From the NCBI GenBank assembly GCA_963727775.1, contig CAVSHB010000001.1:1-64000 (forward strand): a DNA stretch of 64,000 nt. The letters run 5' to 3'. Shown piece after piece: positions 18,001 through 24,000 of this stretch. Position 1 is the first letter of the stretch, and the number at the start of each line of letters is the position of its first letter. The position numbers are program-made. This DNA is from an uncultured Nitrospiraceae bacterium. Its GTDB lineage: Bacteria; Nitrospirota; Thermodesulfovibrionia; Thermodesulfovibrionales; SM23-35.

Positions 18001-21000
18001 ACCTGCACCTGGGCGATGTTCGGATCAGTGCCCGCCTTGAAGGTCAGGTTGATGCTCACAGCGCCGGCCAGATCACTGGTGGAGGCCATGTAGATAAGGT
18101 TATCGATACCATTCAATTTCTGCTCAATGACCTGGGTGACGGTGTCCTGCACGGTCTGGGCCGAGGCTCCCGGATAAGTGGCGTTTATGGCGATGGTCGG
18201 CGGCGCTATCGCCGGGTACTGGGAAACCGGCAGGTTCTTGACCGCCAGGAGGCCAGCGAGCATGATCATGATCGCTATTACGATTGCGAAGATAGGTCGA
18301 TTTATGAAGAATCTTGGCATTAAGAGTCTCCTTTATTTCTTGGCTGCCAGCGCTTGCGATCCACCTGCGGTGCGTACATCCGCCTTACTCCCGAACGGCA
18401 CAGCTTTAACCGGTGTTCCCGGGGGGGCTTTTTGTATTCCTTCCAGGATTACGCGATCGCCAGCTTTCAGACCATCGCTGACCAGCCAGCTTTCGCCAAC
18501 GGTCTTGGCGACTTGTATGATCCGAGGCTCCACTTTGTCTTCCGCCCCGACCATCATAACCATTGCATTGCCGGCCTGGTTGCGTGTGACTCCACGCTGA
18601 GGCACAAGAATCGCGTGCTCGTTGACCCCTTCTTCCACGACGGCGCGGACAAACATGCCCGGGAGCAGTGTATGCTTCGGGTTAGGGAAGACGGCACGCA
18701 ATATTATTGAACCTGTGCTCTGGTCTACAGTAACCTCAGAAAACTTCAGCGTGCCTTGCAGCGGATACGGGCTTCCGTCTTCCGTCAGCAGCTTGACGTG
18801 GGCCTGAGCTAACCCGTTGCTTTTCAGAAGTCCGCTCGCCAGACTCTGCTTCAGACGCAGCAGTTCGGAACTGGATTGGGTTACATCCACATAAATGGGG
18901 CTGAGTTCTTGGATCGTGGCCAGCGGAGCAGACTGATTGGCTGTTACGAGCGCGCCGTTTGTTACGGATGATCTCCCTATACGTCCTGATATAGGGGCAG
19001 TTACTTTGGTATAGGCCAGGTTTATCCGGGCGGTCTCGAGTGCAGCCTTGTTTGCCTGCACATCCGCTTCAGCTAGCTTGAGAGCAGCGCTTGCGTCGTC
19101 ATAGTCCTGTTTACTGACGGCATTGATCTTTACCAAGTCCTGATAACGATCGGCCTTGAGGCGGGCCGGAATGATATTGGCTTCAGCCTTGGCGAGTGTT
19201 GCCTTTGCGTTGTCGTAAGCTGCCTGGTAGCTCGCAGGGTCAATCTGGTAGAGCACCTCGCCGGCCTTGACATCTGCACCTTCGGTAAAGAGGCGCTTCT
19301 GGATAATGCCGCCTACCTGTGGCCTCACCTCCGCAACCAGATACGGGGAAGTGCGTCCCGGAAGTTCCGTTGTGAGTACCACTTTCTGAGGATGTATCGT
19401 GATGACTCCGACCTCGGGCGGCACGCTGGGCATTTTTGCACCGGTTGCGCTCTGCTTGCCGCATCCGGTCAAGATCAGGTATATGCCTAAAATACCCACA
19501 AAAAGTATAAGGTTGATACGGCCTTTAGTCTGTCTGTAAATCTCCTCGAATGTCATGTCGGTTTCTCCTGTTCCTGCAAAATGTGACTAACCTCTATGTT
19601 TATGTTATCTTCGATCGGTCGGCGCGGCCCTGTAAAATTACTTCTGGTAACCTCTCAGCAATGCATCGACCAATGAGCGGGCGATAACATCTCTTCTCTT
19701 TTTGAAAAAATCCGGACGATATAAGAGCATTGTTACCAGCCCGTGAGAAGCCGTTGCCAAGGCCGGTGCGATCACGTCCTCATCAGGCTCCCGTAGTCGC
19801 CCCGCCCTGATGCAGTCCCGAATCATTTCCTTGAACACAAGATGGGTGCTTCGCGCCATCGACTCCTTTTCAATAAATCCACCCATTGTCCCATAAACAC
19901 TCTTCGTAAAAAAAATCACCTTATATTGATTTGGGTGCTTCAGCCCAAATTTTATGAGATAAAGGAATGCCTGACGAAGTGTCTCGATCGGATCCTGAGA
20001 AACCGACCGGATACGCTTCAGTTCAGCAAAAAAAGTCGCGAAAAACTCTTCGCATATGGCAAAGAGCAGGTCATCCTTGTTTTTGAAATAGATATAGATC
20101 GTAGTCGGAGAATAGTCTATCTTCTCGGCGAGTTTCCGCATTGAGAACCCGTCGTACCCGTCATTTATGAATATCTCGCGGGCCGAATCTAGAATTTCTC
20201 TGCGAAACTCCTCCTTGTGCTTGGCCCTTTTCTCTATTACTCCCATCGATATTATCCTAACGTAGTTATGCTTTGTTAACATCGTTAGCTTAGCAAGCCG
20301 ATCTGCATTTTGTCAACCTTCATTTCTATTCGAAGGACTCCCTGTGTTTCGATCTCGAAAGAGTTCACTATGGGATAAACGTCGCAAAGGGGAGCAAATC
20401 ATTTCGGGATGAATTGTTTATATTGCTCATGATTCTTATGCGTGCGCAGTAGGGAGAAGGTGAGACGACGGAGACGATGTTTATGTTGCGGACTTCGAGG
20501 GGTACATCGCACACCATCATTGCCTTGCCAACGTTTAGTTCCAAAAGTAATCTGGCTCTGTAGCAAAAACGCCACAGGGTTGATTACAGGAATTATGTGG
20601 AGTTCCCCGTTATGTGGAGTAAACGTTGCAAACATATGACTCACAACCGTCCTCGCTCAATCTACTTCACATAATGAGGGATCTTCCATCTCCCCAAGTT
20701 CTATGGAAATGGTATTTTTTGGCAGATCGCCGATGAATCCCTTGAAGAATCAGAGACCCAGTGTGAAGCCTGGATTGATAAGGCGTTTTGCAACTCCATA
20801 CCTTATGCTTTTGATACGAATACCTTTGCTATCTACTCCCTAATTTAGGTATTTCAATAAGGAATGCATCTAGGGCCGCCTCATTATTATGTGCAGTAAA
20901 TTTGTTTAGAATACTTATGCAGTAAGGATTTAGAGAGACTACTTCACATAACGGGCAACTCCACATAATGAATAGTGTTTTATCCGTAGTGCCGAAAGGC

Positions 21001-24000
21001 ATTGCGGATAAAACAAATTGAGCTGAGCCGCCCGGGGGAGTGTGAACAAAGAGTATGGGGATTGTAAAGGATGAGAATTATTCTATGAAGCAGTATTTGG
21101 TGGCTATAAGGAATATTTTCGCTGAGGTTCTCGAACTTATAGACTGGATATCAGCTTTGACGCCACCGGGAATAGAGACTGTTTGCTGAAAAGTAGGCTG
21201 AGGAGACAGAACTTTTCGGTGACTTGTTCCAAAGCCTTTTCGGTTCTTCCGTTTCCGAGAGACAATATCCATAATCACGATGAGTCCTTGTAACCGCTAT
21301 GGGAATAACGATATGATCTTCTTGAAGGATATGGCATTTCCATCACGGTGATCATGGTGCCTTCCCTGCAGCAGGGGCATCTGGTAATATCTATGCCCGT
21401 AAGCTCGATCATCAGTTCAGTTGCGGTTTTCTTTTCTCGTTCGGGACGTTGAGTGTTGTCGCCTATCAGTTCTCTGCAGAGCTGTATAGTCTCTTTCTTT
21501 TGCTTGTTGGCCAGAAAACCGAAATGCCGTATCTTCATGAACCCGGGAGGAAGCACATGAAGAAGAAACCGTCTGATGAATTCTCCTGAGTCTACTGTCG
21601 TCAATTTAAGGGTATTGTTATCTTTTCTGTCTCTGTAGGTAAAGGTGACCATACCGTTCTGAACACCCACTATGCGGTTATTCGATATGGCCACCCTGTG
21701 TGTATATCTGCCAATATACTCGAGAACCTGTTGAGGCCCCGCAAAGGGCTTTTTGGAAAATACGACCCAGTTCTTTGCCCTGAGGTCTTTTATCAACCCC
21801 GAAAACCCCTCAGGAGTTGCATACTTTGCAATGGTTCCCGGGAAATCCAGCTCACCCTTTGCGTAGGTCTTCTGCAGGTTTTCAATGAACTTTCCCCTGA
21901 ATACCAGAGAGAGAGCTTCTACATTGAAGAGATAGTTTTCTGCCGAGGGTATCCACCTTGTTTTGTCCAGCGACAGGGCGCCTCCCGCTATTACACAATG
22001 CAGATGAATATGGCCCAGAAGTCTCTGGTCCCATGTGTGCAGTATGGCTGTAAAGCCAAGCGTGCCACCAAGATTGTTGATGCCGAATTGAAGAAGGGTT
22101 TCGGAGACTGCCTTGAACAGGATAGAGAAGATCGCTTTCCTGTTACTGAGGGCAATAGGATTCAATTCATGTGGCAGGGTAAAGACATTGTGGAAGTACG
22201 GCACCGGCAGAAGCTCAGCCTTGCGGTCTTCAAGCCATCGTGCTTTTGTCAGACACTGACACTTTGGGCAATGACGGTTGCGGCAGGAGTTGTATGCGTG
22301 TTGCTCGAATCCGCATTTGTTGCACTTCTCCACATGACCACCGAGATATGAGGTCCGGCATACGGCAATTGCCCGCATAACTTTACGCTGAGCATAAGGC
22401 ACTGAGTTCTCACGCCTATAGACCTTTCCGAATTCCCGGAAGATATCGGCTACTTCCCACTTCTTTACTACCTCCGACAGCAGGGCTTCCGTGGACGACG
22501 ACATGGAGATTACACTTCAGTCAATCTCCTTGTGTCAGGTATCTCTATAAGGTCCAGCGGGCTCTTTGTGGCGGACAGCTTCTTGCTGGTTATCCGCATA
22601 TAGCGCGTCGTGGTCGTTATCGAGGAATGACCCATCAACAACTGGATGGTTCTCAAATCCACTCCAGCTTCAAGAAGATGCGATGCAAAGCAATGGCGCA
22701 GGCTATGAATACAACCCCCCTTAGTTATCCCTGCCCTCTCTTTTGCACTGTAGTATATTCTCTCTGGCGTAGCTCTGTTCATCGGCCTATCAGAGAATGC
22801 CCCGGGGAAAAGCCAGAAAAGGGGTTTGTACTTTCTCCAGTAAGCTCGCAGTTCCGTCAATAAACGGGGTGACAGAATCGTATAGCGGTCTTTGTTCCCC
22901 TTGCTCTGACATACCCTGATCATCATCCTGCCACTGTCTATGTCTTTAAGCTTCAGATTTACTACTTCACTTACGCGTAGCCCGGCCGCATATGTGGTCA
23001 TCAATATCGCCCTGTGTTTAAGGTTTCGAGTGCATTGGAACAATCTTGTAAGCTCCTCGACACTAAGAACCTCGGGAAGCTTTGTCTGCGTTTTCATAGG
23101 CGGGATCCCCAGATGCATCGAGTCTATTCCCAGCGTTTGCGTGTAGAAAAACCTTAGCCCCGATACGACGACATTGCAGGTGCCCCATGAAAGTTTCCGT
23201 TTATCCAGGAGATGCAGAAGATATGCCTGTATCTTTTCCTTGTCAAGCAGGTCCGGTGACTGCTTATAGTACTTGGCCAGGCCTGCTACAGCCGACACGT
23301 ACGCTTCCTGCGTACTCGGTGCAAACCTCCTTAGTTTCATGTCGTTGAGCATCTTGTGACGTAACGGTTTCATACAATACCTCCTCGTTTTGGGTTATAG
23401 GAATATTGTATGAATACCTGCTGGAGGAATAAATTGTGAGATTACTTATGGCGGAGGGCCTTATAGCTTTGACTGTTCATCCTGCCGCGTCAGCGGCTTA
23501 GTTCAATCACAGTTATGTGCAGCTCCACATAACTGGAAGCACATCACACATGTAGAAAAAGCTTTGTGGGGTTTATTTCATGATGGAGTAATAATTACTC
23601 AATCTTTCTTTCACTCAGTTGATTAATACTCTTAAGGATATCTTTCGTCTCGTCCGAGATAGTTTACTGTCCTTTTCCCCGGTTGCTTGTCTAACCGTCA
23701 TCTTTCACAATTCCTATCCCGATTCCGAGTTTTTCAGACCACGTCTGCAAATAGTCTCGGTCGAGGTTCTCCTTCTGAATTTCAAGAATCTTTTTTGCAT
23801 CGAGCCTGTCCTGTTCTCTGCCGCTCACTAATTTCAGGATTATCAGGTCTTCAGGAGTTGATATATTTACCGAAAAATCAGTCAATTGAATGACTTTTTT
23901 CCGTTTAAGCGCTTCCTTCTTGAAAACATCGTCGACGAACAGGAAATCAACAGAAACGTCGGGATTGCTCTTCAATGTGGCCCTTAGGAAAGACACTTTA

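Follow-up and report, generated by a model that had tools for sequence, protein, structure and literature searches.

An IS91-family element with an integron-integrase-related recombinase as a candidate parasite of the inner RIT recombination core

The window, a 64,000-nt stretch of an uncultured Nitrospiraceae genome, contains an IS91-family insertion sequence (IS) that encodes a Y2 transposase and a tyrosine recombinase and is lodged in a recombinase-in-trio (RIT) element. From the junctions compared here, the IS very probably targets the inner RIT recombination core (CATAA^N6-TTATG). The explanation that we favour overall, with moderate confidence, is that of an IS91-family lineage homing to this core, in which the integrase would insert a folded circle made by the Y2 enzyme.

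The element and its copies

The element, with its 287-aa integrase and 409-aa Y2 transposase, occurs three times in the genome, as C1 (the window copy; 2,538 bp, 20969-23506), C2 and C3. All three copies share one junction layout, in which a terminal inverted repeat ending in CACATAA is followed by the element, reading from TGAATAG to GCTTAGTTCAA, then by 6 nt and the 20-bp stub (Table 1). Each occupies CATAA^N6-TTATG, with an RIT terminal repeat on one side and the stub on the other, and the junction sequences bore out the survey's finding that all three copies lie between a 20-bp palindromic stub and a terminal repeat. In C1 and C2 the IS stands at the ritA-proximal end of a gene-less mini-RIT, while in C3 it adjoins the ritC end of a complete RIT of 3.15 kb, inverted relative to C1 and C2; here the survey was right, except that we refine its miniature from 378 to 376 bp (378 bp if one spacer base is counted on each side). 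Comparison with the full C3 RIT upheld its statement that the miniature matches both RIT ends, and the outer flanks of the C1, C2 and C3 composites are indeed unlike one another. The genome has 21,737 ATAAY sites, yet all three IS copies are at an RIT junction, which is not chance. Within the host RIT family the IS was present at 3/3 stub-side ends versus 0/5 other ends (Fisher p=0.018), but the ends are non-independent and, because related loci are kin, every p-value in this analysis is overstated.

Table 1. Features of the RIT-IS composite in the window
Feature	Position	Strand	Remarks
Outer 6-bp spacer CAGGAA, left RIT-unit boundary	20587..20592	+	5/6 identical to right outer spacer; IS-free RITs built alike
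Gene-less miniature RIT body, 376 bp	20593..20968	.	Ends match both ends of full C3 RIT
Mini-RIT terminal inverted repeats	20593-20621 and 20940-20968		Each consists of two direct TTATGTG(G/A)AG repeats
Mini-RIT sub-terminal repeat copies	20664 and 20887		
oriIS end of IS	20969..21031	+	Layout recurs in 31 oriIS ends of relatives
oriIS hairpin, 18 bp	20976-20993 / 20998-21015		Preceded by 6-7 unpaired nt after the cut
oriIS 15-nt segment	21017-21031		Complementary to terIS end
IS91-family Y2 HUH transposase, 409 aa	21275..22504	-	PF14319, PF04986, NF033538
Tyrosine recombinase, 287 aa, integron-integrase-related	22510..23373	-	PF13495, PF00589
terIS end	23480..23506	+	Small GCCGC/GCGGC hairpin; terminates in GCGGCTTAGTTCAA at crossover
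Inner 6-bp RIT spacer TCACAG	23507..23512	+	IS inserted at left edge; IS-free counterpart with same spacer and stub is G175:C10
20-bp palindromic RIT stub	23513..23532	.	Two back-to-back TTATGTG arms; 118 distinct IS-free analogues
Outer 6-bp spacer CTGGAA, right RIT-unit boundary	23533..23538	+	

The Y2 transposase matched both of its Pfam families, has a zinc-binding domain, scored 434 bits with NCBIfam NF033538 (cut-off 125) and retains intact HIHLH (at 165) and YIGRY (at 263) motifs. The catalytic motifs of the tyrosine recombinase are also intact; its closest solved structures are XerA (4a8e) and IntI4 (2a3v). The IntI insertion is absent from it (∼40 residues are missing in the alignment to IntI4), and it scores below the TIGR02249 cut-off. 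Closest to it is the IS91-family subgroup with an upstream tyrosine recombinase, which bears ISfinder names such as ISShvi3 and ISWz1. Judged by its sequence, which also gives its boundaries, the element is a putatively autonomous member of the IS91 family. IS91-associated recombinases have been described as the nearest IntI homologues (bioRxiv 10.1101/542381, abridged text), and the IntI insertion has been called essential for integron function (PMC8138268, in excerpt).

The RIT host

In the C3 RIT body (342088-345010), ritA, ritB and ritC lie side by side and overlap slightly; they encode tyrosine recombinases of 312, 331 and 337 aa. These genes are absent from the window miniature, which gave no significant protein match; its terminal inverted repeats (30 nt, 93% complementary) have the ∼30-bp length of RIT repeats. 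By these features the C3 body is classed as an RIT and the window miniature as a non-autonomous RIT derivative. Ricker et al. 2013, on RIT elements, may describe the palindrome. IS-free miniatures were present at several loci in G161. The C1 and C2 miniatures are each other's nearest relatives (93.6%), and that of C1 matches the IS-free miniatures of G161 and G175 at 81.6-89.4%.

Crossover position and ordinary targets

In all 18 cases with positions 2-6 of the spacer mirrored in the outer one, position 1 was mirrored as well (11 C, 7 T), and one locus, L382, has G at this position; together these place the cut at AA^N, on the edge of the 6-bp spacer. Boundaries at GTTC^ or AAY^ were dropped in favour of AA^N. 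When filled and empty junctions were compared, the spacer was found once and AA alone was shared, indicating that no target-site duplication is made.

The same cut and the same IS ends were found at ordinary, RIT-free sites. Among 56 unique flanks of ordinary targets, 39 had C at +1, 36 had T at +8 (p=3e-11), 23 had A at +9 and 5 had TTAT at +7 (0.15 expected). Dyad symmetry about the 6 bp is partial in these targets, with T at +7 in just 17/56. NNAA precedes oriIS, where no tetranucleotide of the GTTC/CTTG type was found; this, together with target information out to +8/+9, suggests a variant IS91 subgroup rather than a canonical member.

Repeated insertion at RIT junctions

The IS copies in C1 and C3 are identical (0/2535 nt differ) and have different partners, C1 being joined to the ritA end of a miniature beside spacer TCACAG and C3 to the ritC end of a full RIT beside TGGCTG; their stubs also differ. 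Junctions identical to those of C1 and C2 exist in IS-free form in G175 and G161, respectively. In G324, three related ter ends each adjoin a different RIT stub sequence, and one of these junctions was also seen without the IS. Run X3 gave an empty site, and in run X4 the repeat was joined to a 91% relative; run X1 gave only short pieces, in which no joint was seen, and runs with small shares were left out as habitat evidence.

All 6 ends in the IS lineage of the window were associated with RITs, versus 0/18 others in the class. Near relatives of the IS do occur at ordinary sites, namely a ter end in G299 and an ori end in G325:C8; the latter, with its ordinary flank, was the one true end in an oriIS search of five relatives, the rest being chance matches. 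A phylum-wide search for the repeat joined to oriIS returned 9 matches outside the genome, all of which lacked the oriIS partner motif. The genome also has 10 empty CATAA-N6-TTATG sites, two of which are junctions of another RIT family, indicating that the core alone is insufficient for targeting.

Across GTDB, a terIS hairpin was identified in 43/91 matches. A true palindromic stub (at least 8/10 pairs) accompanied 39/43 matches with terIS versus 3/48 without, and the spacer was mirrored at 5-6 of 6 positions in 25 of the 43 versus 0/48. RIT-joined IS ends were scattered over the integrase tree rather than confined to one clade: on a tree of 45 proteins the RIT label required 9 changes, at least 5 of them forced, and a single change sufficed in 0/200 bootstrap trees. 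The link between IS and RIT arose in at least five separate places of this tree. Viral contigs yielded at least 124 IS-free junction stretches and 0 true IS-RIT cases among 71 matches; terIS was flagged in 1/13 and 0/58 of these, the one flagged being a false case.

Homing versus carriage

Taken together, the identical C1 and C3 copies on unlike bodies, the IS-free twin junctions, the G324 ends and the recurrence on the tree argue that it is the IS that seeks out the RIT site. They reverse the survey's view of RIT carriage as the cause of the link, and targeting of the RIT junction by the IS, which it had named as its own refutation, is the better-supported cause.

Carriage in its fullest form would have the IS entering an RIT junction once or rarely, after which RIT recombinases moved, inverted and shrank the composite of body, IS and stub. 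In 8/31 IS-free RITs with both ends seen, the outer 6-mers agreed with one another and differed from the inner spacer, so the inner junction moves together with its RIT and could hold cargo. The two outer 6-mers of C1 are likewise closer to each other than to the inner spacer. In L185 a full RIT, IS and stub are flanked by identical outer 6-mers, and the inner spacer is a different one; L168 and L179 have inner spacer and stub in common with different outer flanks. The IS has also diverged in parallel with its RIT, both between C1 and C2 (IS 95.0%, against the miniature value given above) and between C3 and L088 (IS 86.4%, RIT part 86.8%, over 317 nt), which fits long joint inheritance. As sole cause, however, carriage fails on the identical C1 and C3 copies with their two bodies and ends, and it gives no account of the three stub types in G324 or of the separate origins on the integrase tree. 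We found no near-identical IS-bearing composites at two different loci. Perfect inner/outer spacer mirrors were about as frequent in IS-free junctions (41/118) as in those with the IS (18/39), and since mismatch is equally common without the IS, a 'locked' inner spacer was uninformative as proof of composite movement. We regard this alternative as distinctly unlikely. The survey's proposal that RIT sites bound a mobile composite thus stands insofar as the unit includes the inner junction, but such carriage does not explain the association; from the C1/C2 co-divergence it is plausible as a secondary effect of homing. A 2023 article names the target specificity and the movement of RITs among things not tested (PMC10214605, in excerpt).

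Four stub-joined elements (L144, L183, L186, L203) have their oriIS in ordinary flank, and one-ended IS91 transposition may explain them. As the cause in this genome, one-ended transposition dragging the stub was ruled out by the different stubs on the identical C1 and C3 copies. Several loci have only ter and stub, the IS genes being absent.

Joined ends and a proposed route of insertion

Natural ter-ori junctions were found in metagenome contigs L076 and L100 (L081 is a variant), in which circle and tandem are indistinguishable. For the L100 junction fold, z was -9.9 (bottom strand) and -7.5 (top strand). In the inner stems of 32 oriIS ends, read on the bottom strand, there were 36 G-T versus 1 A-C mismatch, and the base after the cut can pair with its partner in 30/31 ends (17 C-G, 6 T-A, 6 T-G, 1 G-T). 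The outer-stem counts (26 G-T to 0 A-C) and the greater stability of the bottom strand in 21/21 were not used, being biased by the search pattern. No conserved extrahelical bases, such as those of the attC L box, were evident in the junction folds inspected. These data point to a conserved, strand-biased two-stem fold of the junction that resembles attC.

The functional IS91 substrate is a bottom-strand single-stranded circle (PMC13181058, in excerpt). In the route that we propose, Y2 would peel the bottom strand off as such a circle, and the joined ends would fold like attC into an outer stem with AA^N, an unpaired spacer, an inner stem and a variable loop. The attC core is RYYYAA^C, cut at the position shown, and the ter end of the IS, GTTCAA^Y, fits it. 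The element's own IntI-related integrase would then carry out a single-strand exchange between this folded site and a double-stranded target, AA^N6-(T)TAT, with the product resolved by replication. A one-strand route would give no duplication and require no spacer homology. The RIT inner junction would offer a full two-armed target and the outer RIT ends one-armed ones; an IS inserted inside the RIT-moved unit may later ride as RIT cargo. We consider it probable that integrase action on the folded junction is the chemistry of insertion, the identity of the joining enzyme being deduced from these features; the missing IntI insertion and the lack of visible conserved extrahelical bases speak against it.

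The symmetric core gives no account of one observation, that ter faces the stub in 9/10 unselected RIT junctions. This orientation would follow if Y2 alone integrated the circle at AA^N, drawn to the hairpin-forming palindrome of spacer, stub and spacer and cutting at the base of a 32-nt stub hairpin, with the integrase just resolving multimers. Y2 is intact, the junction fold could be an HUH recognition structure, and lack of duplication with one preferred orientation are IS91 traits (PMC13181058, partial text). Against this, characterised IS91 elements target a one-sided tetranucleotide (same partial source), whereas the information here is two-sided and extends to +8/+9; the cut falls right at the border of a 6-bp spacer of the tyrosine-recombinase kind, and reversed arrangements were also found, with ori at the stub in L153 and L198 and ter at the terminal repeat in L083. 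Insertion by Y2 alone therefore seems rather unlikely to us.

The position of the crossover at the RIT spacer edge might instead reflect capture of the IS circle by RIT recombinases, for which its junction (GTTCAA^N6) would pass as a target. RITs do tolerate targets with poor arms and mismatched spacers, and elsewhere in the genome they are inserted in integrase-Y2 elements. The AA^N cut and the same ends at RIT-free sites nevertheless indicate that Rit proteins are unnecessary for the reaction, and the link is concentrated in certain IS lineages, as the class comparison above illustrates; capture is highly unlikely.

Relationship to known systems

The element resembles IS91, IS801 and IS1294 in its Y2 HUH transposase with zinc domain, the absence of target duplication, separate oriIS and terIS ends (lying downstream and upstream of tnp, respectively), subterminal palindromes and a ter-ori junction (PMC13181058, in excerpt). 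It departs from the canonical family, as depicted in that excerpt, in its intact IntI-related recombinase, in the AA^N cut instead of one after GTTC/CTTG, in its two-sided target information, in ends that would co-fold into two stems and in its RIT homing. The gene order and overlaps of C3, the terminal inverted repeats and the ends shared by the window miniature agree with RITs as presented in parts of PMC3414803, PMC5737581 and PMC10214605, unlike the gene-less window body. The stub with its 6-bp spacer, the miniatures and the nested IS are not described in those parts of the three articles.

Likenesses to attC and IntI include the single-stranded two-stem fold, unpaired central spacer, variable loop, bottom-strand bias and related integrase (PMC8946536, PMC8138268, both in excerpt). 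In contrast, the IntI insertion is missing from the IS integrase, conserved extrahelical bases were not seen, neither attI nor a cassette array is present, an HUH enzyme would make the circle and the IS site exists only once the ends are joined. The element may work like an integron cassette without being one. Somewhat less likely than not, in our view, is the wider possibility that integrase-Y2 elements are a distinct self-mobile, cassette-like class, with an HUH-made single-stranded circle, attC-like joined ends and insertion by an IntI-ancestral recombinase into the core sites of other elements' tyrosine recombinases; several lineages would have become RIT-specialised independently and would hitchhike within the mobile RIT unit, possibly blocking inversion of the RIT body. 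If so, such elements would offer a living model of how integron recombination arose and would pinpoint the exact base of the RIT crossover.

Elements of the IS1111 type that target attC, and class C group II introns, likewise parasitise, at one fixed point, a recombination site that belongs to a different element (PMC9229058, partial text); they differ in their enzymes and in that the host site here is an RIT core, not attC. In the literature searched we found no earlier description of an IS91-type integrase element homing to RIT sites; the case would add a recurrent example, across many phyla, of such parasitism. The circle junction, the empty and filled target and the 376-bp mini-RIT are supplied here as base-exact substrates that bear on the role of the IS91-carried recombinase and on RIT targeting.

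The IS and its copies in the genome

Three copies of the integrase-Y2 element (hereafter the IS) were found in this genome, on contigs C1 (the window copy), C2 and C3. As the survey's finding held, all three lie between a terminal repeat of a RIT (recombinase-in-trio) element and a 20-bp palindromic stub; it was also borne out that a miniature RIT without genes (mini) ends two of them (C1 and C2), and a full ritABC of opposite orientation the third (C3). The C1 and C3 IS show 0 differences over the 2535 nt compared, and the C2 IS is 95.0% identical. In this RIT family the IS occupies 3/3 stub-side ends versus 0/5 other ends; ATAAY sites number 21,737 in the genome.

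Parts of the window copy and the RIT sequences that adjoin it
Feature	Positions	Strand	Note
Tyrosine recombinase, 287 aa	22510-23373	minus	ahead of the Y2 gene
IS91-type Y2 transposase, 409 aa	21275-22504	minus	after the recombinase gene
IS	20969-23506		window copy
Mini (gene-less RIT)	20593-20968		
Inner spacer	23507-23512		
Palindromic stub, 20 bp	23513-23532		

The two distinct ends of the IS, oriIS and terIS, were defined from relatives situated in ordinary flanks, and both ends are joined, in a circle or tandem copy, in three metagenome contigs (L076, L100 and, as a variant, L081). Among GTDB cases with spacer positions 2-6 mirrored, position 1 also mirrors the outer spacer in 18/18 (11 C, 7 T); a single locus (L382) has G at this position, and another (L134) differs between its sides, with C at ter and T at ori. 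These three observations put the cut at AA^N in either partner, on the border of the RIT 6-bp spacer.

The composite is flanked by genes for an AbiEii-like nucleotidyltransferase (window 23691-24239) and the TetR regulator belonging to an RND efflux operon (20001-20415); the TetR region has a paralogue, 85% identical, at C1:1011757-1012170. Nearby, at window 24481-24550 and 24768-24807, are copies of a short palindrome (CCCCCTCTTA...AAGAGGGGG) that is repeated in the genome, with 17 matches.

RIT junctions free of the IS

The repeat-spacer-stub pattern was matched 22 times among 390 class genomes, in 19 of them, and viral contigs added at least 124 stretches; removal of duplicates and weak palindromes left 118 IS-free junctions among the matches listed. 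In order, such a RIT consists of a 6-mer, the body, an inner 6-mer, the stub and a further 6-mer. Both ends were seen in 31 IS-free RITs among the matches listed. The outer 6-mers agree with one another in 18 of them, 8 of which have an inner spacer unlike the outer pair. Outer 6-mers that are alike and yet unlike the inner spacer indicate that the inner junction travels along when the RIT moves. This genome has a second RIT family with the same intact layout, in both body orientations, within the Y2 gene of another integrase-Y2 family; this reverse nesting occurs at one codon (C1:340436-343864, C3:215033-218430 and the end of C1).

Each half of the window stub and of the C3 stub is identical to the opening 10 bases of a terminal or sub-terminal RIT repeat (for the left half of the window stub, the one at 20887), so that the stub looks like a RIT that has lost its entire body. 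Four stubs (L071, L074, L088, L117) have both arms altered symmetrically (AAATGTG...CACATTT) while the terminal repeat is still TTATGTG, a sign that stubs may be rebuilt or that one arm converts the other. A different RIT family, at window 37747-41220 (stub TTATCCAAAGCTTTGGATAA at 37747) with a second copy on C1 (about 478,300-481,800), has the same layout of stub and 6-bp spacer and interrupts a reverse-transcriptase-like gene precisely at the GVPQGG motif. Two halves of the RIT family of the composite, without stub or IS, lie 123 kb apart on contig C4 (51980-52466 and 175510-177165), each truncated by a copy of a single different insertion sequence, and are probably one RIT split by rearrangement.

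Probable homing of the IS to the RIT inner junction

The survey had placed RIT movement behind the association. The identical C1 and C3 IS join different bodies, ends, spacers and stubs, which points instead to homing of the IS. IS-free versions of the C1 and C2 junctions were found in related genomes (G175 and G161, respectively), an empty site in sequencing run X3, and a 91% relative joined to the repeat in run X4. Across 12 of the 390 class genomes there were 25 terIS ends; the six of the window lineage (three in this genome, three in G324) all adjoin stubs, 18 are not at stubs and one is at a contig edge. The three G324 stubs are of three different sequences, one of these ends being known from 22 nt at a contig start.

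Scanning metagenomes with the window terIS gave 55 loci. The close lineage adjoins stubs in eight, largely from one sample series, adjoins a terminal repeat in one (L083) and is part of a ter-ori junction in three; the other 43 lie away from RIT sites. In GTDB the ter-spacer-stub pattern was found at 91 loci, 43 with the terIS hairpin (two of them non-independent repeats of class-search junctions). A good palindrome was present in 39/43 and a mirrored spacer in 25/43, versus 3 and 0 of the 48 without the hairpin. Hosts include Pseudomonadota, Verrucomicrobiota, Planctomycetota, Myxococcota, Actinomycetota and others. The oriIS end of the 39 meets a terminal repeat in six, a second stub in one and ordinary flank in four; in the rest the IS body is lost or the contig ends before oriIS. 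The RIT label requires 9 changes on an integrase tree (n=45; 15 RIT-linked, the majority drawn from the stub-selected scan). Well-supported branches force at least 5 of these changes, and the window lineage, three RIT-linked rows plus one junction row, is a 100/99 clade. Kin sequences are not independent, so p-values overstate. No true IS-at-RIT case was found in viral contigs, or by an oriIS-side search of 400 other genomes of the phylum.

Taken as sequence evidence, these results argue that an IS91-integrase lineage homes to the RIT inner core and moves on its own. In the literature covered, IS91-integrase elements were not described at RIT junctions, nor were miniature RITs or attC-like folding of an IS91-integrase circle junction; Ricker et al. 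2013 and ISfinder/TnPedia, beyond that scope, may bear on the stub and the IS subgroup.

One locus (L169) holds a miniature gene-less IS91-integrase derivative at a RIT junction, with both ends and 432 bp between cuts. At six others (L135, L141, L162, L170, L180, L200) terIS and stub persist with no IS genes in 6.5 kb upstream (5.1 kb for L170, 1.9 kb for L200). Other integrase-Y2 lineages have their own recurring post-cut targets (ACTAC-TTA..., CTTCAA-CTT...; L090, L093, L099, L120 and the G369/G350 ends L372, L374, L378, L379, L385-L387), hinting that they home to other repeated elements.

Possible carriage by the RIT

The feature is real, and later carriage by the RIT is possible: body, IS and stub would move as one composite with the IS as cargo, a plausible but secondary process to which we give about even odds. 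The C1 and C2 minis are closer to each other (93.6% identical) than to four IS-free minis (81.6-89.4% for C1), and the C1/C2 mini divergence matches that of the IS; C3 and L088 agree at 86.4% across the IS and 86.8% across 317 nt of RIT. L185 has the same outer 6-mers on both sides of full RIT, IS and stub, and two loci of one genome (L168, L179) have a common inner spacer and stub with different outer flanks. However, all these observations are compatible with repeated homing too, and perfect mirroring of the outer by the inner spacer is no rarer with the IS (18/39) than without it (41/118, among the matches listed). The survey's proposal that RIT sites bound a mobile composite stands in part: the 8 of 18 matched-outer RITs, among the matches listed, indicate an inner junction that moves with the RIT, but near-identical composites at two loci were not found.

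Target, junction fold and possible mechanism

Ordinary targets (n=56) have AA ahead of the cut, with C at +1 in 39, T at +8 in 36 and A at +9 in 23, and read as a partial dyad flanking 6 bp, not as a tetranucleotide on one side. Filled junctions have C as first spacer base more often than empty ones do (C:T 21:18 versus 14:52, counted by eye in different collections). Both arms are present at the RIT inner junction, one at outer ends. The Y2 transposase would make a circle, which the integrase would insert by one strand exchange, with the two-armed inner junction as target and outer ends offering only one arm. This leaves three points unaccounted for: the ten empty CATAA-N6-TTATG sites in this genome, the ter bias (ter faces the stub in 9/10 junctions counted) and the absent IntI insertion. 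Integration by Y2 alone better accounts for the second.

The last 14 nt of terIS and the first oriIS base are complementary to 21017-21031, just behind the oriIS hairpin, and when both ends are joined the bottom strand is predicted to form an outer stem with AA^N, an unpaired spacer of 6-7 nt, an inner stem and a variable loop. The natural L100 junction gives z=-9.9 on the bottom strand and -7.5 on the other. This layout was found in oriIS ends across the family; after 7 of 38 automatically called ends were discarded as false or mis-registered, 30 of the 31 left have a post-cut base able to pair with its partner. Bottom-strand inner stems of 32 ends contain 36 G-T versus 1 A-C mismatch, the pattern expected of a single-stranded fold. 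The attC core is RYYYAA^C, cut at the position marked. One source describes attC as folded single strands whose spacer is unpaired and whose terminal structure varies, with a bias to the bottom strand (PMC8946536), and the IS junction fold is similar in these respects; another describes IS91 as working via a bottom-strand single-stranded circle (PMC13181058). The best solved relatives of the window integrase are XerA and IntI4; unlike IntI it lacks the IntI insertion, and a preprint states the same of IS91 recombinases (bioRxiv 10.1101/542381).
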